The position numbers were made by a program, and so were the translations under genes. From Naegleria gruberi (Eukaryota): a stretch of 64,000 nucleotides of DNA. The notes beneath the pieces are model-generated. The model was not told the origin of the DNA, searched no databases, and worked only from the letters and a program-made list of their open reading frames with translations. Shown here piece after piece: positions 7,914 to 44,967 of the stretch; the first letter of the stretch is position 1; each line of letters starts with the position of its first letter. The stretch is from assembly GCA_000004985.1 (NCBI GenBank), contig GG738926.1, one strand, 5' to 3'.

Positions 7914-10900
7914 ATGAAACTATTAAACTTGTTTATTTTTCTAATATTATTTCCCACACTAATTTATTCATCATCCGCAGAGGATACGAGAAATTATTCC
8001 AGCTCATCCATTAATAATTCGAATAATTTTCCTTCATCCTCTTTGAAAACTAATGTTGTTAACTATTCGAAAGGAATTAATTTACAAATAATTTATTACA
8101 TTAATTCTGATGATGTCAAATATCAGAATACAACTTGTCAAGACGAAAGTCATCCATGTTCAGATATGAACCAAGTGATCTTGGCAGCAAATACGAAACT
8201 ATTCGAAATATTTCATGAAAATGATCAAACTAAATTAGATTCTTTTACAATGATTGTCATGATTGATTCGAAATTGGAATGTAACAAACTGCTCTTTGAT
8301 TTTTCAAATTATACGAAACGATTCGAAATGAGGTGGAAAGGATACGAAAATGGTTTATTCTCTGCTTGTCTAAATAGTTTAGATGAAAATTCCATTTTAG
8401 ATGCTTTCACTGTTGAGAATGGAAAGATTTCAGGCGAATTGAATAATAGATTAGGTATCAAGAATTTGGAAATTCGAAACTGTCACGATGGTGGAATGAT
8501 TTACTTTTATACTAAAATAGAAAATTTGCTGATTGCTGACAGTTTCTTTCATGAAGATACTGAAATAACTGAGATTACAAATGTACGAGTGGAAAATACG
8601 CAATTGGATGATTTTGAAATTGTTTCGAATGGAGCAAGTGTTGAAATTTCAAATTCTAAAATTCAAGGAATTGTTGATTTGCAGAATTTTAAATCATTTT
8701 CTATTCGAAACTCAATTTGGAAAAATAACCGAGTTCATGAGGATTATTCATCAACATTTAATTTAGGACAAGATGTTTCATTTGATAATGTAACAACTAA
8801 TGCTAAAATTGTGTTTATTTCAATCAAGTCAATCAAGATGAATGGGCTAATTGTACACAATTATGGAAACGGATATTTCTTGTATCAAATGATACGAGTT
8901 TCTCATTTCTATCTAAGCAACAGTTCGTTTGTGGGAAATTTCGTGCTCAACAACTATTTACTCTCCTTGCAAATAGTTGAATCTATACAAATTGAAAATT
9001 GTACAGTTTCTAATAATGTTGGAGGTTTCATCATGGTAACAGATGCTACTTTGATAATGGGACAGGTGAATATACGAATTAGTAAGAGTGTATTTCAATC
9101 CAACGAGATGCTGTCAGATATTGCTCTAATTGACATTGTGGATCAAACAAGAGAGATGTATTTTATCACAGTTGACCATTGTAAATTTTTGGAAAATACA
9201 GGAGAATCCACTTTACACATTGATGGAGGACTTGCCCAAATTTCCAATTCAGACTTCTACTTTAATATTGCAAACGAACATGGTACTGCATACTTGAATT
9301 GCTATGTTACAATTTCAAACTCTAAATTCATCGCTAATCAAGCCAAGTTAGGAGGAGCCATTTACATTGGTCCTGCTGGAAATATTGATGCATCTCAAAC
9401 AATTGATTTTACTTGTGATAATAATTGGGCAACCTACGCTGGAGGATGCATTTATTCAGAAAATTTGGATTTTTCAAAATTGAAACGCATGAATGGAACT
9501 AATATTGCTAAATATTATGGAAATGATGTGGCCACACCTATTGTGAGTCTGGATGCTACATTTGATGAGGTAGATTCTAATGGAAATATTGAGGTTTACC
9601 CAGGTCAAGCATTCCAAATTAATTTTTTCCCAAGAGACAAGTTCAATCAGAGCACCTCTTATTTATTGAATCAATATTTGTTTATCAATTCAGAAAAAGG
9701 TCATTTTACAATCTCTCAGAATTTTTTAGATGGAATCCATTCTATTCCAGTAGTTTTGCAAATATTTCCAATTGACGACTACAACCCATCATTGCCACCA
9801 CTTGTAATATTGATTTCTTCAAAAATTGAAATCAAAATTCCTGTAAATATTCTCCCATGTCCAGATAGTTCTTTCCTGAAATTATCTCAAAATGGACATT
9901 ACTGTGAACAAATTCCATTAGCAGCGATTCTGTCATCTGTAATTTTGGGAATTATTTTGATAACCATTATATTGGCAGCATTAATAGTGATAGCTAGGAA
10001 ATTATTGAAATTGAGAAAACAGGAACGTGCTGAAAAGAAAATGGAGCTATTGTTCAAAGATAAGGAATTTATATTCGAAACAGAACAAGCACCTCTATTA
10101 CTTTCTAATACCATCAACAGTAGTGATTCAGGTGAAAGTAGATCAATAATTGGAAACAGGCAACAATACATCATTCCAATTTCTGAAATTAATATTTTGA
10201 AAAGAATAGGAGAAGGTGGAATGGGTGTCGTATATCACGCGAAGTGGAATCGAACTGATGTTGCCATCAAACAATTGAAAACAGATTCCAATGATGAAGA
10301 ATTCGAAAATGAAGCAATTTTAATGAGCTCACTTCGACATCCATGTATTGTGAGCTGTTTTGGAGTTTCTCTGACAACCAATGGAAAATATATGATTGTA
10401 GAATATTTGGAAAATGGAAGTCTAGAAAAGGCAATTTATAATTCAAAGATGGGAAGAGCAATTTTGAGATTTGAAACCAAGTTGAAAATATTAACTGATG
10501 TTGCCAAAGGATTAGTTTATTTACATTCAATCAAACCTCATAGAATTATTCATAGGTATGTTTACTACTTTTATTGGAATAGATATTAATTATGGAATAG
10601 AGATTTGAAACCAGGAAATTTATTACTCGATAAGAATATGAATGCAAAAGTTGGGGATTTTGGATTGAGCAAAATTGTTTCGAATAATTCTGCAACAATG
10701 ACAGCAAATGTAGGAACTTTACTTTACATGGTAAGTCTAGATAATTTCACAAATTGAATTAAATTGTTATCAATTTAGGCGCCAGTAAGTAATTTCGAAA
10801 TTTAATTTATTAAAATTTCGAATATTTTACAATAGGAATTACTTTCGAATGATCACAAAGGTCAAAGTACAAAAGTGGACGTTTATTCATTTGGAATTAT

Positions 10901-17888: not shown

Positions 17889-19301
17889 TTAAAATTGGCT
17901 TGACTGGAGCAAATTTGTCTTACATCGACTTGATATTTCAGAATACATTTCAGAATACCAACTTTCTGGCAGGGCACCTTGGAGAGCCATTTTGTTCATC
18001 AGTTCGGTATCATCCAAATATTTCAAATTTCCCAATCCAAATAATTGTTCTTTTCGTTGATTGAATTCTTGTTGTGAGAAACGCCACATGAAACCCTTCT
18101 CCCTGGCCAAGTTTACAAAGAAATAATCGTCAATGAGTGAGGGATGGACATATCTCAGAACTGCAATGTTTTCCTGAACTAATTCTTTGACTAGCTCTAG
18201 ATTAGTTTGAAGCTCTTCGGAGGCGTATTCAATTGAGCGAGGTTGATTTTTGACAGCCTCTGTGAGGATTTCAAAGTTATTGATAATTTTTGGATAGGAT
18301 TTTAGATATTTCAAAATCAAGCCATTAATGGAGGCAAATCTTAATATGAGATCAGGAGATCTCTTAACTTTTCTATGAACAAATTCGAATAATCTGATAT
18401 CCTTTCGAATAACATATTCTATAATATCCAAATCCCTTTTAATGAATCCAGGAGCAACTCTGAAAGCTTGAGGATTGACCATTATCAACCTACGCATAAA
18501 TCTTCCACTATTTCTGAGTTTCTTTGAAATACTTGGCACTAAACCAGGAGACAACACACAAGCCATGTGTATAATTTCTCTATCTTCTGAAAATTCAGAT
18601 AAAATAATTTCCAAAAATGTTTTACACGACCCAATCAATTGTGTGTAATTTTCCATGATTTTCAGAATGAGATCTCTATTATCCTCAATGAAAAATTCAA
18701 CAGGTATATATGAAATAGCCTTTGGATATTGTCTCAATAGTTCCATTACAATATCTGGATCGAAGGAGAAAGGTTTCGGCAGTGAGAAATAATTAATGGC
18801 ATCATGGCAGACCAATTGTAAAGCATCCAATCTCTTAATGGACTTGTTTTTGAGAGGTTTCACTGTAATGGGACGATCCATAAATATCTTTTCAAGGTTA
18901 ATTTCATCAGTGATAATTTGAAATTGTTGAATGGCAGGTGAATTTCTAAACAATTTACTGACAGCTCGCTGGATTTCAGGACTGAGTGCATAATTATATG
19001 TAAAATAGTCATGAGTAGTGAAAAACTTGGCCAGGAATGTAAAACTCTTCGAATACTCAATTGGAATGTAATCATAATCTCTCGACATGTCCTTCCAAAA
19101 TTTTCTGGGAAGAGAAAACTTCTCTCGGAGCCAACTAAATTGTTCCGAATACTTTTCCTGACAAAAATCTATAAGTATAACAACTGTAGAATAATCAGTG
19201 TTATTCCCAACCGATGCCGATGAAGAATATTTGGTAAATTTGGTCGACGGTTGGAATTCGTTTTTTTCGAGTTGATTTTCTGCTGTTCGCTTTTTGTGCA
19301 T
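17889..19301 (-). CDS. Repeat-containing protein with DUF4116-like repeats (tentative); basic N-terminus
   Basis: Likely ATG at 19301 (MHKKRTAENQ…); the caller's TTG is at 19358. Recurrent ~35-aa units with A..NP.A..Y...E...D.E.. spacing, for example IMVNPQAFRVAPGFIKRDLDIIEYVIRKDIRLFEFV and AVKNQPRSIEYASEELQTNLELVKELVQENIAVLRYV. Family assignment is from memory and is uncertain. Confidence 0.45.
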   Translation of the reverse strand: MHKKRTAENQLEKNEFQPSTKFTKYSSSASVGNNTDYSTVVILIDFCQEKYSEQFSWLREKFSLPRKFWKDMSRDYDYIPIEYSKSFTFLAKFFTTHDYFTYNYALSPEIQRAVSKLFRNSPAIQQFQIITDEINLEKIFMDRPITVKPLKNKSIKRLDALQLVCHDAINYFSLPKPFSFDPDIVMELLRQYPKAISYIPVEFFIEDNRDLILKIMENYTQLIGSCKTFLEIILSEFSEDREIIHMACVLSPGLVPSISKKLRNSGRFMRRLIMVNPQAFRVAPGFIKRDLDIIEYVIRKDIRLFEFVHRKVKRSPDLILRFASINGLILKYLKSYPKIINNFEILTEAVKNQPRSIEYASEELQTNLELVKELVQENIAVLRYVHPSLIDDYFFVNLAREKGFMWRFSQQEFNQRKEQLFGLGNLKYLDDTELMNKMALQGALPESWYSEMYSEISSRCKTNLLQSSQF

Positions 19302-19470
19302 TTTTTTGGTTTTTTTTGGAATTTTGTTTTGTTTGAAGGTTTGCAGAAAATTTTGCAAAACTCAAATTGTCAATAATCAAATGAATTAATGAAGAAATAA
19401 TTGATTTTAAAATCATGGAGTTGTAGATATTTGTGTAACTTAAAGATTGAATGCAAAAAATCTTGGTGGT

Positions 19471-21595: not shown

Positions 21596-21657
21596 ACAAG
21601 TGAATTTTCTTGTGCAAAACTCTGGTAATAAAATCTTTGGATGGCTCGCCACGTTTA

Positions 21658-21728
21658 CCGTCTCGGGAGGAATCGAACCTCCGTCAATGGATTCAAAGTC
21701 CACTATGCTACCATTACACCACGAGACG
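21658..21728 (-). tRNA. tRNA-Gln (anticodon UUG)
   Basis: The reverse complement folds as a cloverleaf: CGTCTCG / TG / GTGT-AATGGTA-GCAT / A / GTGGA-CTTTGAA-TCCAT / TGAC / GGAGG-TTCGATT-CCTCC / CGAGACG / G. Anticodon loop CTTTGAA gives TTG. T-loop is TTCGATT. Architecture matches a canonical eukaryotic tRNA-Gln(UUG). ORF 21555..21743 overlapping it is spurious. Confidence 0.8.
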
Positions 21729-22429
21729 AGCACATTAATTTGAGAACCTTAATGGATATTGAGGAATCAAAACAAAGTTTTCGTTGAATTCAACAACACA
21801 CACATTGATGAGGGATTGACAGCTTTATCGGATATGATGTGGATGGAATGTTGGTTGTACTTTTCCGGTAGAAGGAATTAATTATTCTTGAAGGATATTG
21901 TTAATACGGTGGTTGTCGCTTCTTGTTGAACGTAACTGGAGTGTTTAAATAATGTTGTTTTTCAAAAGATGAATCACACTCATCCACTAATTATTGTTTT
22001 GTTACCATCATCATTAAAATTCATCTCGATGCATTAACGATATTTTTTAAAATATTAAAAAAATCTTCACAATACGTCCACATATTTATTATTAATATCA
22101 TCTTTGTTGTATCATCATGTAACAGATCTACAGAAAAATTAAGGAAGAGGGATTAGAATTTTGAGAGATTCGCTATGGGTCAATCATCATGAACAGAATC
22201 TTTTGGCTCATTCGGATTTCCAACATCAAGCATCATAGCTTTGCCTCAATAACAATGAAGAAAAGAGAGTACAAAAAAAGAAGTTTAAAGGTCCTTATGC
22301 CGCCTAATACCTCCGACTAACTAGGAAAATTAGAAAATACTAGATTAACTCTTCAAGCAACCTGGAACAATCAATCAAACAACCTAACAAAAAAAAAGAT
22401 AATCACAGTTGACCTGCTCATCATCTAGA

Positions 22430-34943: not shown

Positions 34944-35016
34944 GCCCGTCTAGCTCAGTCGGTAGAGCGCAAGGCTCTTAACCTTGTGGTCGTGGGTTCG
35001 ACCCCCACGGTGGGCG
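34944..35016 (+). tRNA. tRNA-Lys (anticodon CUU), copy A
   Basis: GCCCGTC-TA-GCTC-AGTCGGTA-GAGC-G-CAAGG-CTCTTAA-CCTTG-TGGTC-GTGGG-TTCGACC-CCCAC-GGTGGGC-G. Canonical eukaryotic tRNA-Lys(CUU) architecture. A T-rich tract follows (attctcttttttctctttttt). Confidence 0.9.
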
Positions 35017-36001: not shown

Positions 36002-36074
36002 GCTGGCGTAGCTCAGTCGGTAGAGCGTTGGTCTAATAAGCCATTGGTCGCCGGTTCGATCCCGTCCGTCAGCA
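36002..36074 (+). tRNA. tRNA-Ile-like (anticodon AAU), with one mismatch each in the anticodon and T stems
   Basis: GCTGGCG-TA-GCTC-AGTCGGTA-GAGC-G-TTGGT-CTAATAA-GCCAT-TGGTC-GCCGG-TTCGATC-CCGTC-CGTCAGC-A. The overall plan and loops match a canonical eukaryotic tRNA-Ile(AAU). Mismatches are 27T·43T and 50C·64T. Confidence 0.6.
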
Positions 36075-36088
36075 GTTAATTTTATGTT

Positions 36089-36382
36089 TTATTCCCAATC
36101 ATATGGAATACTAACCCCATATGTCACTTCCGATTCTGGATATTTACAAATTGTATATGGAGTCTTATGAGGATGTTGTTTTAATTTCTCAAAAACATCA
36201 TCAAAATCATCGTCCGAAAGAGAGAAGAATCTTACATAGTCCTTATTTTCACAAATATTGTGGAATTGATAATCTTGTCCTTCTTGAAACCAAAACTTTT
36301 GCTTTAAACTGTTCCGAATATTGGCCTTGTTGATAGATCCATTTTTAAAATCAATAAACAGGATGATGTGATACGTTGACAT
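36089..36382 (-). CDS. Small hypothetical protein (~97 aa)
   Basis: ATG at 36382 (MSTYHIILFIDFKNG…). Acidic DDDFDD stretch. No family recognised. Confidence 0.3.
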   Translation of the reverse strand: MSTYHIILFIDFKNGSINKANIRNSLKQKFWFQEGQDYQFHNICENKDYVRFFSLSDDDFDDVFEKLKQHPHKTPYTICKYPESEVTYGVSIPYDWE

Positions 36383-36536
36383 TTTTTTGATTGATTTCAA
36401 GTCCAATTTCTTTTTACAAGATTTCAAGAATGTCGGGTTTAACCGCTGTGTTTCATTTTGAAAATTGAAGTCTTTCAACAAGAATATATTAATCCTTGGA
36501 ATGGATATCAACTTTACAACTTTATTTTACAATAAT

Positions 36537-38825
36537 TTACAGGTCCAACATTTCCATACACTTTTCCTTGATTGGTACAATTCTATGAGCTCTTCTATCT
36601 ATGGTTTCAATCTTTTCGACAATTTCCATACATTTCTTGTATTGTTGATCACTATAACACTCAACTGCATCAGCATACAAATCACAAACATTGATTTCTG
36701 CCTCTGGAGCGTTCTCAGTTTCACAAAGGAGCTCATAAATTACTAATGGCTTGGTCTTACCCTTAACAGTAACTGAATCTAATGGAACACAGAATAATCT
36801 ATTCGAAACTTGAACATAAGTAGCTTGACTGATGGCAAGATAAGTTCCATAATTCTTATTAATTCCTTCAATACGAGAAGCAGAGTTGACATTATCACCC
36901 AATGCTGTATAATTCATTCTTTCAGGAGTACCAACATTTCCAATAAAGGCAGATCCTGTGTGAACTCCAATTCTTGTCTTGAATTCTGGAAGACCCTTCT
37001 TTTCCCATACTCTATATAGATCTTTCAATTCTTTTTGAATTCTGAGTGCTGAATTACATGCTTTGTAAGCATGATCTTCAATTGCGAATGGAGCATTCCA
37101 GAATGCCATGATAGCATCACCTAATTTCAATGTCAGTTATCAATGAATAATTGAAACTTACCAATAAATTTATCGACTGTACCTCCAGATTCAATAATGT
37201 GATGGGTTGCTCTTTCTAGATATTCAGAAAGACATTGAACAAGAGTATTAGGATCCATCTTTTCACAAATTGTTGTAAAGTTTTCAATATCTGAGAAGAG
37301 CAAGGTCACATTCAATTCTTGCACTCCAAGACATGCTTCCTTTGAACTTTCTAATAAAGCTTTTACAAGAGAGCTAGGAACATATTTGTTAAATGAACGA
37401 AGACCAAATTTCATCTTGTCAACAGCTAATTGAATTTCTTTGACTTCTGTCAAGAAACTTCTACGTTGTTTTTTTGAAGAAATTTCCAATCTAGCAATCT
37501 TGTTAATATCCTTACTAAGGGATGATAATGGAAAGGTAATCAACAAGGAGAACACAAAGACAACTGCAGCACCGAATATCATAATTCCCAAACTGATCAA
37601 CAAACCATTTCTGAATTGAATCCAAATGTCTCCCAACACGTCAATTTGTGGAGAGAAGATTACAATAATCCAATCCATTCCATTAATTGAGGATGAGTAA
37701 CTGTATGGAATGGCATTAACGTCAACATCATAACCGTTCCATTGAATACTAGTAGAAGCAGTTCCATTCAATTTCTTCAAATCATACAAACTTAATAATT
37801 TCTGGTAACCTTCTTTTACAAAAGTTGTGTTGCCTTCGAGTGGAGTTGTCTGAACTGGAATTCCATTCTTAATAATGTATGAAGGATCAGAAGGAGATGA
37901 AGAACCAATCAATAATCCGTTTCTGTCTATTAACATGGTCACTGCATTCTTTGAAACTGGTGTGCTTTGCATGAAACTTGATAATGACCTGCCGAATGTA
38001 ACAGAAGACCAAGCATAGTGGAATTCTCCATCAACCCAAAAAGGAGTCACATACGAAATGTAAAAATCTGGATCGACCTGATTGTAACCAACATCCGTCC
38101 AACTTTCTTTTGGATTCGAAACATTCATCAATTTCCAATAGGGTGATTGAGTGTTATCAACACCAGGAACGTGTACAATCAAATTAACTTCACCACTTGG
38201 AGTAACCACAAAGAAATCAGCTCCTTCCTTTGACACAAAGAGTCCATTAGCAAAACTGTAAATGTTCTGAACTCCCCATGCATAGTAACCTGTCTTGTCT
38301 CCTACTGAAGTAAATATAGAATCTGGATTCATACCCTTGAAAACATTATACATGTGATTTACAACTAAAGTGGATTGATCTGTTGTGTTGAATAGTTAAA
38401 ACTTAAAAAACAGTGCTCTACTTACTATGCAGATCCCACTTGAATGTCATGAATTGATTCTTATAAATAGTTGACAAATCAACGGCTGGCTTGAATTTAG
38501 TATTAAGGTAGTTTGCAAGATTCTTCGCATAACCTTCCTTTAATTTCGTGTTCATGTCCAACACTGATGTATTACCCGTGTTAAAGCCAATGAACCAGGT
38601 AATAATCAAAACGACGAGAACAACCAACACGAGAACACACACCAGCAACAATCTAATAGAGAATAAAAAGTTGAGGAAGGAATAGATAGACCGAACAATG
38701 AAAGGAGTCTTATCTTCCCCGTAGAATAGCGAATCGACAGAATGTGCCTTGTGGAGAGCATATACATCTGCCTTGGAACTGTTTTGTGGTGTTACCACTG
38801 GTTGAATACTTGGTGATTTGACCAT
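36537..38825 (-). CDS. Receptor-type class III adenylyl/guanylyl cyclase (~736 aa, three exons): short cytosolic N-terminus, TM1, ~300-aa extracellular sensor domain, TM2, HAMP-like linker, cyclase catalytic domain
   Basis: Exons on the minus strand: 38825..38426, 38379..37162, 37129..36537. Introns are GTAAGT..AACAG (46 nt) and GTAAGT..ATTAG (32 nt); phases verified. TM1 LLLVCVLVLVVLVVLII, TM2 LLISLGIMIFGAAVVFVFSLLI. Cyclase motifs VTLLFSDIENFT, KFIG|DAIMAFWNAP (split by the 32-nt intron), RIGVHTGSAFIGNVG, YTALGDNVNSASRIEG. Confidence 0.8.
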
Positions 38826-42076: not shown

Positions 42077-42149
42077 CGCCCACCGTGGGGGTCGAACCCA
42101 CGACCACAAGGTTAAGAGCCTTGCGCTCTACCGACTGAGCTAGACGGGC
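42077..42149 (-). tRNA. tRNA-Lys (anticodon CUU), copy B; identical in sequence to copy A
   Basis: The reverse complement equals the 73-nt copy A sequence. The same ~35-bp upstream element (atttacaaaaagttgatattgttaatgaaatgtag) and a T-rich downstream tract are present. Confidence 0.9.
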
Positions 42150-44894: not shown

Positions 44895-44967
44895 CGCCCA
44901 CTGTGGGGGTCGAACCCACGACCACAAGGTTAAGAGCCTTGCGCTCTACCGACTGAGCTAGACGGGC
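44895..44967 (-). tRNA. tRNA-Lys (anticodon CUU), copy C; single-base variant in the 3' acceptor strand (C to T on the + strand, giving a 7C·66A mismatch)
   Basis: The reverse complement equals copy A except for one substitution (cactgtggg versus caccgtggg on the + strand). A related upstream element (aaaagttgatattcaatgtgaaaggtag) is present. Confidence 0.8.

Follow-up and report, generated by a model that had tools for sequence, protein, structure and literature searches.

The stretch of DNA analyzed (the window, 64,000 nt) originates from Naegleria gruberi NEG-M. A gene of three exons on its minus strand (38825..36537) encodes a protein of 733 residues with an intact spliced translation; the start ATG (38825–38823) and the stop TAA (36539–36537) fall exactly at the ends assigned in a preliminary description of this DNA. 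The gene is real, intact and already annotated in the public record (NAEGRDRAFT_75617, EFC36760.1, XP_002669504.1, UniProt D2W2K3), where it is labelled "predicted protein". The 733-residue model is 99% identical to the public one (EFC36760.1, P0038) and differs from it solely by five residues at the intron 1 acceptor. Neighboring open reading frames are exact matches to N. gruberi EFC36722 to EFC36762. No paralogue was detected within the window by tblastn, and a literature search by gene identifiers returned no paper mentioning the gene. A second, independent environmental Naegleria haplotype (contig L002) was available for comparison. The features of the locus are as follows:

36537..38825, minus strand: whole coding region of the predicted receptor adenylyl cyclase, 733 residues, spliced translation intact
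38426..38825, minus strand: exon 1, encoding the cytosolic N-terminus (residues 1–57), transmembrane segment TM1 (~58–82) and the long first dCache helix to residue 133 plus 1 nt, from hydropathy
38380..38425, minus strand: intron 1, 46 nt, GTAAGT...CAG, phase 1
37162..38379, minus strand: exon 2, encoding the rest of dCache (distal and proximal PDC modules), TM2, the HAMP-like linker, the CTE-like segment and the first half of the cyclase domain with metal Asp497 and Lys537
38170..38379, minus strand: hyperdivergent patch in the distal Cache module, residues ~134–205 (against L002: nucleotide identity 70%, dN 0.27, dS 0.94)
37121..37161, minus strand: intron 2, 41 nt, GTAAGT...TAG, splitting KFIG|DAIMAFW between Gly540 and the metal-binding Asp541
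36537..37120, minus strand: exon 3, encoding the second half of the cyclase domain (Asp541, Thr611, Asn618, Arg622), the three-helix C-terminal tail (~679–732) and the stop codon

Hydropathy and Pfam searches bear out the domain order that had been proposed, that of a receptor-type class III cyclase with an ectodomain of about 300 residues between two transmembrane segments. The N-terminus (1–57) and TM1 are followed by an ectodomain of ~305 residues (~83–391), TM2 (~392–416), a helical linker, the cyclase domain and the three-helix tail.

The ectodomain is, as judged from its modelled fold, a divergent double-Cache (dCache_1) domain; Cache had been named as a candidate, together with CHASE or a novel domain. 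The AF2 model, built on the public sequence and hence five residues short at the intron 1 junction, has a pLDDT of 84.9 and a pTM of 0.83 for this region. Its secondary structure elements follow the dCache_1 order, with a long N-terminal helix, two tandem PDC (alpha/beta) modules and a C-terminal helix that runs into the membrane; one continuous helix (57–127) spans TM1 into dCache. Among PDB structures, Foldseek places nothing but dCache ligand-binding domains in its top 50 (E 8.5e-11 for the best, TM 0.56–0.64). A profile that includes the ectodomain, and that is dominated by cyanobacterial rows, matches PscC (6mni, E 4.5e-11) and PctA (E 3e-6), and the ectodomain aligns over its full length with cyanobacterial kinases annotated by Pfam as dCache_1-HAMP proteins, with the common motifs RNGLLIGSSS and G(L/M)DW. 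A word-indexed search with the ectodomain recovered the Naegleria cluster alone, the index being of low sensitivity, and an exhaustive HMM search was used instead. In the HMM comparison with CHASE, Cache and periplasmic-binding-protein (PBP) models that the preliminary description had called for, only a sub-threshold match to dCache_1 (PF02743) was obtained (residues 172–374, 23.9 bits against a gathering score of 45, E 3.5e-5), and the homologues from Willaertia and Percolomonas show no match to PF02743. No CHASE, CHASE2 or PBP family was found in the ectodomain at E ≤ 1; CHASE2 is confined to bacterial proteins whose similarity lies in the cyclase half. Given the absent Pfam matches and the dCache fold matches, a CHASE, PBP or novel-fold ectodomain was rejected. 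An amino-acid sensor of the dCache_1AA type was also rejected: the AA_motif of Gumerov et al. 2022 (Y121, R126, W128, (Y129), Y144 and D173 in PctA numbering) aligns with D208, P213, W215, K216, G231 and a Val, such that only the Trp is kept.

The gene is under purifying selection, with dN/dS well below 1 (dN 0.004 and dS 0.05 for residues 392–733 against L002). The two haplotypes are 96–99% identical outside the distal patch, whose flanks have a dS of 0.05–0.12. It is conceivable, if improbable, that the surface with which a horizontally acquired bacterial receptor recognizes its ligand has been subject to gene conversion, or to balancing or diversifying selection over a long period, and that this mosaic patch of ~70 codons is the outcome. 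A free-living amoeba would then carry a series of alleles that differ in sensor specificity.

The extracellular dCache_1 domain would bind a small-molecule ligand, probably in its membrane-distal module, and the ligand is predicted not to be a canonical alpha-amino acid. An alternative is that the domain senses an osmotic or physical stimulus, as proposed for Dictyostelium ACG and yeast Sln1, or serves as a mere structural dimerization module; the cyclase would then be controlled at another site, such as the class IIIb catalytic domain if this responds to bicarbonate/CO2. Several class IIIb cyclases do respond to bicarbonate/CO2, and both the loss of the canonical amino-acid-binding motif and the hypervariability of part of the distal module would fit such a role. 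Most characterized dCache domains, however, bind small ligands in the distal module, the top structural matches are all ligand-binding domains, many of them solved with ligand, and, where the distal module passes into the proximal one, motifs show strong conservation with bacterial sensors. Even with the osmosensor Sln1 assigned to dCache_1 by Upadhyay et al. (PMC4822843), we consider this alternative unlikely and favor a ligand-binding receptor.

In such a receptor, the conformational change would travel down the helix that continues into TM2, and next cross a HAMP-like helix-connector-helix of divergent sequence, then a short segment acting as transducer (FNKYVPSSLV...). A HAMP domain is taken here as ~50 residues of helix-connector-helix directly after a transmembrane segment that match the profile and have a conserved Pro in AS1 and a conserved Glu where AS2 begins. 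The linker (residues ~414–462) is colinear with three proteins annotated as HAMP (PF00672; P0276, P0282 and P0286). Its position and length are conserved with PF00672-annotated kinases, and none of the aligned sequences departs from the hallmark residues Pro417 and Glu445. For HAMP, hhalign gives a P value of 1.8e-4 and a probability of 48%, and Pfam PF00672 does not match the linker even at E ≤ 10. The AF2 model, a monomer, shows helix, disordered connector and helix at low confidence (pLDDT 44–65). The cyclase transducer element (CTE) of class IIIa/b cyclases is a conserved helical segment of ~19 residues immediately N-terminal to the catalytic domain. The CTE-like segment of the Naegleria protein (~463–480), FNKYVPSSLVKALLE, aligns with (A/S)F(S/G)xY(L/V)SPxVVxxL of bacterial cyclases and may be such an element. 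At the other end of the catalytic domain, the three tail helices (674–691, 695–708 and 713–727 in the AF2 model, P0038 numbering) have counterparts in bacterial cyclases. The tail is called TPR-like here from the three-helix model and this similarity only; Pfam searches with the isolated tail and the isolated linker gave nothing useful at E ≤ 10.

The cyclase domain (PF00211) spans residues 490–663 (E 2.7e-22, 79.7 bits against a gathering score of 21.9). Its best sequence relatives in the PDB, at E values between 1e-30 and 3e-23, are Pseudomonas aeruginosa CyaB (3r5g, E 1e-30), a fusion based on CyaB1 (6fht) and Spirulina CyaC (1wc0). A catalytically competent homodimer requires two metal-binding Asp, two substrate-specifying residues and the transition-state Asn and Arg in one chain. 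All six are present (D497, D541, K537, T611, N618 and R622) and align with the catalytic residues of 3r5g and 1wc0; the motifs KFIGD and NYTALGD correspond to KFVGD and DFTAIG in CyaC and to KFVGD and DYTIIG in CyaB. The positions that specify the substrate hold Lys and Thr, the latter in place of Asp, in class IIIb adenylyl cyclases, and show a Glu/Cys (or Glu/Arg...Cys) pattern in guanylyl cyclases. The protein is therefore predicted to be a homodimeric class IIIb adenylyl cyclase rather than a guanylyl cyclase, the ATP specificity being predicted from the Lys537/Thr611 pair only. Examination of these residues, a check suggested earlier, points to the adenylyl type and not to an ambiguous specificity.

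A receptor guanylyl cyclase that makes cGMP, like the natriuretic-peptide receptors, would have a similar overall layout, and PF00211 spans both activities. However, Lys537 and Thr611 stand where guanylyl cyclases would have Glu and Cys or an equivalent pair, and match Lys and Thr of CyaC and CyaB, both adenylyl cyclases; bacterial adenylyl cyclases reach E 1e-30, whereas guanylyl cyclases score much worse (E 1e-8 to 1e-14), and Pfam finds neither a kinase-homology domain nor a PBP ectodomain. Guanylyl specificity is thus very unlikely. In the adenylyl cyclase, the signal from the ectodomain would alter the geometry of the class IIIb dimer and so change the synthesis of cAMP from ATP; ligand-dependent signaling and the direction of regulation are both inferred.

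That a short intron splits the catalytic motif KFIG|DAIMAFW, as described previously, is borne out. Its length is 41 nt (37161..37121) and not 32 nt; no canonical GT..AG pair 32 nt long restores the frame and the motif. Nor is it an intron that automated prediction missed, as the public model splices it identically. Both introns have canonical GTAAGT..AG ends. Intron 1 went unmentioned in the preliminary description; it measures 41 nt in L002, a difference of 5 nt that is not a multiple of three. The public model places the intron 1 acceptor at an AG 15 nt further downstream, which is absent from L002, and the L002 haplotype and the Willaertia orthologue support the 733-residue model instead. 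In the Willaertia orthologue, intron 1 has a counterpart of identical position and phase, and the intron 2 site is uninterrupted, KFIGDAIMAFW being read continuously. If intron 2 were retained, the frame would end at codon 549, 8 codons past KFIG, truncating the cyclase as anticipated; but a pseudogene, a mis-assembly or contaminating bacterial sequence with an interrupted catalytic motif is barely credible, given the splice signals on both inserts, the same exon structure and intact 733-residue reading frame in L002, the purifying selection, the orthologues in Willaertia and Percolomonas, and the position among eukaryotic genes and tRNAs on a 175-kb N. gruberi scaffold.

The receptor cyclase is conserved across Heterolobosea, and its orthologues in Willaertia and Percolomonas, together with the shared intron position, indicate that the bacterial-type receptor has long been resident in the lineage. 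The resemblance to bacterial sensor cyclases pointed out earlier is confirmed by colinear alignments: the cyclase and tail are 40–50% identical to many bacterial cyclases, and bacterial or metagenomic fragments are colinear with residues 219–666 (P0292, 32% identity) and 253–668 (P0252, 36%). Since the closest relatives outside Heterolobosea are bacterial dCache-HAMP-cyclases and cyanobacterial kinases, these alignments suggest a bacterial origin through an old horizontal transfer, the introns having been gained later. Similar cyclase domains also occur in a small number of further eukaryotic records (a chytrid sequence and a transcriptome entry), so vertical descent with loss may be an alternative, as may contamination of those records. 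The receptor cyclase layout is less unusual among eukaryotes than the preliminary description held; trypanosomatid receptor adenylyl cyclases are another example. A count of at least 81 cyclases is reported for Naegleria (PMC9928731), and Upadhyay et al. 2016 (PMC4822843) already note Cache in a Naegleria "bacterial-type adenylate cyclase" and attribute eukaryotic Cache domains to horizontal transfer.

Taken together, we interpret the locus, with a probability of roughly 0.8, as a functional N. gruberi gene whose product, a homodimeric transmembrane receptor adenylyl cyclase of bacterial type, probably makes cAMP in response to an outside signal. The gene opens no new question, because it is already annotated and Cache-linked bacterial-type Naegleria cyclases are described in PMC4822843. 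It adds one clearly characterized member, with a predicted dCache, HAMP-like linker, class IIIb adenylyl cyclase and TPR-like tail, to a large and mostly unstudied Naegleria repertoire, and suggests that the thresholds of Pfam are too strict for heterolobosean Cache and HAMP domains.

The Naegleria protein shares with Dictyostelium ACG and with vertebrate and trypanosomatid receptor cyclases the general plan of a eukaryotic membrane cyclase with an extracellular sensor. The ectodomain of ACG is of the CHASE type, those of natriuretic-peptide receptors and trypanosome receptor cyclases are PBP-like, and the vertebrate receptor cyclases are guanylyl cyclases. Unlike these, the Naegleria ectodomain has no CHASE or PBP family match in Pfam; the likeness to ACG drawn earlier is one of architecture only.

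CyaB (3r5g), CyaC (1wc0) and Anabaena CyaB1 (6fht fusion) have the metal Asp pair, the Lys/Thr pair and the transition-state Asn/Arg pair in common with the Naegleria protein. Their sensor modules (MASE2, GAF/PAS and others) are not dCache, and the extra three-helix tail is shared with CHASE2-type and related bacterial cyclases rather than with these three. Within N. gruberi, the Cache-cyclases D2V3A4 and D2VLR9, from the list of Upadhyay et al. 2016 (PMC4822843), combine dCache_1 with Guanylate_cyc at a similar size (745 residues, dCache_1 at 68–372); D2W2K3 was not among the entries of the supplementary list that were examined. They are not close ectodomain paralogues, as no protein of 745 or 894 residues is among the best 150 hits of the exhaustive ectodomain search.

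Outside Heterolobosea, the named proteins most closely related to the ectodomain are cyanobacterial dCache_1-HAMP hybrid histidine kinases (Microcoleus, Planktothrix, Nostoc and Phormidium), which align over its full length, including the RNGLLIGSSS and GLDW motifs, at an identity of only ~20%, and which differ in output, having a histidine kinase and receiver in place of a cyclase. The same order of TM, dCache, TM, HAMP-type linker and cyclase is found in bacterial dCache_1-HAMP-class III adenylyl cyclases (such as metagenomic P0292, P0252 and P0004); Mycobacterium tuberculosis Rv2435c is named as a dCache cyclase by Upadhyay et al. 2016 (PMC4822843). In contrast to these bacterial enzymes, the Naegleria gene resides in a eukaryotic nuclear genome, contains two spliceosomal introns, and encodes a longer cytosolic N-terminus and an ectodomain and linker that have diverged below the Pfam thresholds for dCache_1 and HAMP.

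The cyclase gene on the minus strand comprises three exons (2,202 nt in total) and encodes 733 residues. Its start and stop codons fall exactly at the two ends proposed in the preliminary description (36537 and 38825).

38825..36537, minus strand, cyclase coding sequence (ATG at 38825-38823, stop codon TAA at 36539-36537)
38825..38426, minus strand, exon 1
38425..38380, minus strand, intron 1 (46 nt, GTAAGT...CAG, phase 1)
38379..37162, minus strand, exon 2
37161..37121, minus strand, intron 2 (41 nt, GTAAGT...TAG, separating KFIG from DAIMAFW)
37120..36537, minus strand, exon 3

An intron within the catalytic motif had been anticipated and is present; however, the length of 32 nt assigned to it was a miscount. 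No canonical alternative of that length restores the motif. If intron 2 is left in, translation meets a stop codon 8 codons on. The gene is already in the databases as a "predicted protein" of 728 residues (EFC36760.1, XP_002669504.1, UniProt D2W2K3, NAEGRDRAFT_75617). The expectation that automated predictors would miss the small intron is refuted, since EFC36760.1 splices intron 2 exactly as in our model. The sole difference between the two models is the acceptor AG of intron 1, which lies 15 nt further downstream in EFC36760.1 (window 38364-38381), such that the junction reads ...DLH|IVNH, versus ...DLHNQSTLVVNH in our model. Both a second haplotype and the Willaertia orthologue, through its length, back the upstream acceptor; by using the downstream one, EFC36760.1 probably omits five residues (NQSTL) and reads I for V.

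This second haplotype or strain (environmental contig L002, ENA ERZ929261) has the same three-ORF layout, and our splice sites yield an intact 733-residue ORF when applied to it. Its intron 1 is 41 nt long, compared with 46 nt in the window, a 5-nt difference that would not be tolerable were the segment coding. The upstream AG is conserved in L002, whereas the downstream acceptor is absent. The Willaertia magna orthologue (P0002) shares 50% identity over the full length and has an intron matching intron 1 in position and phase; it has no intron at KFIGDAIMAFW, and the motif is read continuously. Between the two haplotypes, dN is 0.004 and dS 0.05 for residues 392–733, a low dN/dS. These comparative data indicate that the gene is real, spliced and under purifying selection. 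A literature search for the gene identifiers returned no paper mentioning them.

Outside intron 1 and one patch of exon 2, the gene is 96–99% identical between the haplotypes.

~38379-38170, minus strand, hyperdivergent patch between the two haplotypes (residues ~134–205; 38170-38440 with intron 1)

Within the patch, only 70% of nucleotides are identical, dN is 0.27 and dS is 0.94 (0.05–0.12 in the flanks). Since synonymous divergence is raised about ten-fold, old recombination or gene conversion seems a better explanation for the patch than simple positive selection. It corresponds to the first strands of the membrane-distal Cache module, adjoins the conserved SPYW/ESW region, and is also indel-rich in Willaertia.

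Several intron-less ORFs in the window exactly match N. gruberi proteins (EFC36722, EFC36724, EFC36754 and EFC36762) from a single 174,974-bp scaffold, and further ORFs encode typical eukaryotic proteins. An ORF at 17889-19358 (minus strand) contains DUF4116 repeats (E 1.5e-25), and one at 7914-10589 has a protein kinase domain at its C-terminal end. Five tRNA genes (one Gln-TTG, three Lys-CTT and one Ile-AAT) lie among the protein genes, at 21657-21729, 34944-35016, 36002-36074, 42077-42149 and 44895-44967. Between the cyclase stop codon and the tRNA-Ile, ~460 bp further on, is a 97-residue ORF (36089-36383, minus strand) that is also conserved in L002.

The protein contains two strongly hydrophobic segments (residues ~58–82 and ~392–416) flanking ~305 residues. 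Five of nine N-x-S/T sequons fall within this stretch, and a Lys/Arg-rich segment follows TM2; both features fit a topology with the N- and C-termini inside and the ectodomain outside. In the full-length AlphaFold model (mean pLDDT 79.5), TM1 runs into a long helix followed by two alpha/beta modules; a helix (373–424) then continues into and past TM2, followed by a disordered connector, a second helix (437–459), a short helix (464–473), the cyclase domain, which is modelled with high confidence (pLDDT above 90), and three C-terminal helices. The domain order matches the receptor layout originally described.

We assign the ectodomain to the double-Cache fold, of which it is a divergent member. 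Its Pfam dCache_1 match is sub-threshold (E 3.5e-5; 23.9 bits versus 45), the Pfam search gave no match to CHASE, CHASE2 or periplasmic-binding-protein families, and direct comparison with PDB sequences gave only a marginal Cache match. Cyanobacterial proteins that carry Pfam dCache_1 and HAMP annotations can be aligned with it from end to end, and the motifs (E/D)RNGLLIGSSS and G(L/M)DW are shared. The ectodomain model (pLDDT 84.9, pTM 0.83) follows the canonical dCache order of long helix, PDC, PDC and helix (PDC, the alpha/beta module of the Cache fold), and the best 50 Foldseek matches in the PDB are all dCache ligand-binding domains, led by 3li9 (E 8.5e-11), followed by the uracil receptor 9hvj, PctD, PscC, Mlp24, Tlp3 and TlpQ. 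A canonical amino acid is an unlikely ligand, since the amino-acid-binding AA_motif (Y121, R126, W128, Y129, Y144 and D173 in PctA; PMC8915833) is not conserved in the alignment, which places D208, P213, W215, K216, G231 and a Val at these positions.

We describe the linker as HAMP-like, a possible member of the HAMP family. Pfam HAMP does not match it even at E 10; however, it has the right position and length, retains the hallmarks Pro417 and Glu445 (neither varies across the aligned kinases with a HAMP annotation), and gives a probability of 48% (P 1.8e-4) in profile-profile comparison with HAMP. Three bacterial cyclases with a Pfam HAMP annotation (P0276, P0282 and P0286) are colinear through the linker at ~38% identity. 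Bacterial cyclases also conserve the segment that comes next, FNKYVPSSLVKALLE, and we take it to resemble the cyclase transducer element of class IIIa/b cyclases.

The cyclase domain matches PF00211 (E 2.7e-22). The best-matching solved structures all belong to adenylyl cyclases, namely Pseudomonas aeruginosa CyaB (3r5g, E 1.2e-30), the CyaB1-based fusion 6fht and Spirulina CyaC (1wc0, E 2.7e-23), whereas guanylyl cyclases score far lower. Alignments identify metal-binding (D497, D541), substrate-specifying (K537, T611) and transition-state (N618, R622) positions; a single chain carries all six, a pattern typical of homodimeric enzymes, in which the two active sites are symmetric. The Lys/Thr pair is the class IIIb signature, so an adenylyl cyclase of this class is predicted. 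Several class IIIb enzymes respond to bicarbonate/CO2, and such responsiveness is possible, by analogy, in the Naegleria cyclase. The three-helix tail (~55 residues) is common to bacterial CHASE2-type and related cyclases. In two distant heterolobosean homologues, P0201 (Percolomonas cosmopolitus) and P0053, a Ser replaces the substrate-specifying Lys (ISYIGD versus KFIGD) while the other catalytic residues are kept; their specificity or activity may differ from that of the Naegleria enzyme.

An exhaustive HMM search with a heterolobosean ectodomain profile against 1.84 billion representative proteins gave only 345 matches at E <= 1e-3. Naegleria and Willaertia come first, followed by P0053 and P0054, in which Pfam finds only the cyclase (the P0054 cluster includes a Percolomonas cosmopolitus transcript), and then by cyanobacterial dCache-HAMP kinases (Microcoleus, Kamptonema, Phormidium) and bacterial dCache-HAMP-cyclases. 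The proposed likeness to bacterial sensor cyclases is borne out. The cyclase and tail share 40–50% identity with hundreds of bacterial or metagenomic cyclases. Colinear alignment across Cache, TM2, linker and cyclase extends to two fragments from metagenomes, P0292 (residues 219–666) and P0252 (residues 253–668), which suggests that these parts were inherited together, as one complete architecture. We favour an ancient acquisition from bacteria by the heterolobosean lineage, with the introns gained afterwards. Two records labelled as eukaryotic make this reading less certain: a chytrid record (P0234, Nowakowskiella sp. JEL0078 HK096_009337) and a EukProt transcript (P0246, GEZU01025585) have similar cyclase domains (40–47% identical over linker, cyclase and tail); both end in a bacterial-type W..V..L..K C-terminus and may be genuine genes or may come from contaminating bacteria. 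A further bacterial protein (P0056, from a 9.3-Mb contig) combines the same dCache-HAMP sensor type with a different, class IIIa-like catalytic domain (Lys/Asp pair, Pfam E 5e-69) preceded by a long coiled-coil/HNOBA-like linker; the sensor module is thus combined with different cyclase subclasses.

From alignments and models, we class D2W2K3 as an N. gruberi dCache receptor of bacterial type and a predicted adenylyl cyclase; the preliminary observation was essentially correct, and its interpretation largely right but overstated. The architecture is not new for this species: the gene was already annotated, and Upadhyay et al. (PMC4822843) reported Cache in a Naegleria 'bacterial-type adenylate cyclase' and ascribed Cache domains of eukaryotes to horizontal transfer. 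Their supplementary tables list N. gruberi D2V3A4 (745 residues) and D2VLR9 (894 residues), both dCache_1 plus Guanylate_cyc, as well as D2V2K8, and count 13 dCache_1 proteins in Heterolobosea. D2W2K3 is not among the entries covered here, which fits its sub-threshold dCache_1 score. A pangenome study of Naegleria gives a count of at least 81 cyclases (PMC9928731). New here, relative to these reports, are the assignment of D2W2K3, the absence of the amino-acid motif, the corrected intron-1 acceptor and the predicted class IIIb identity.
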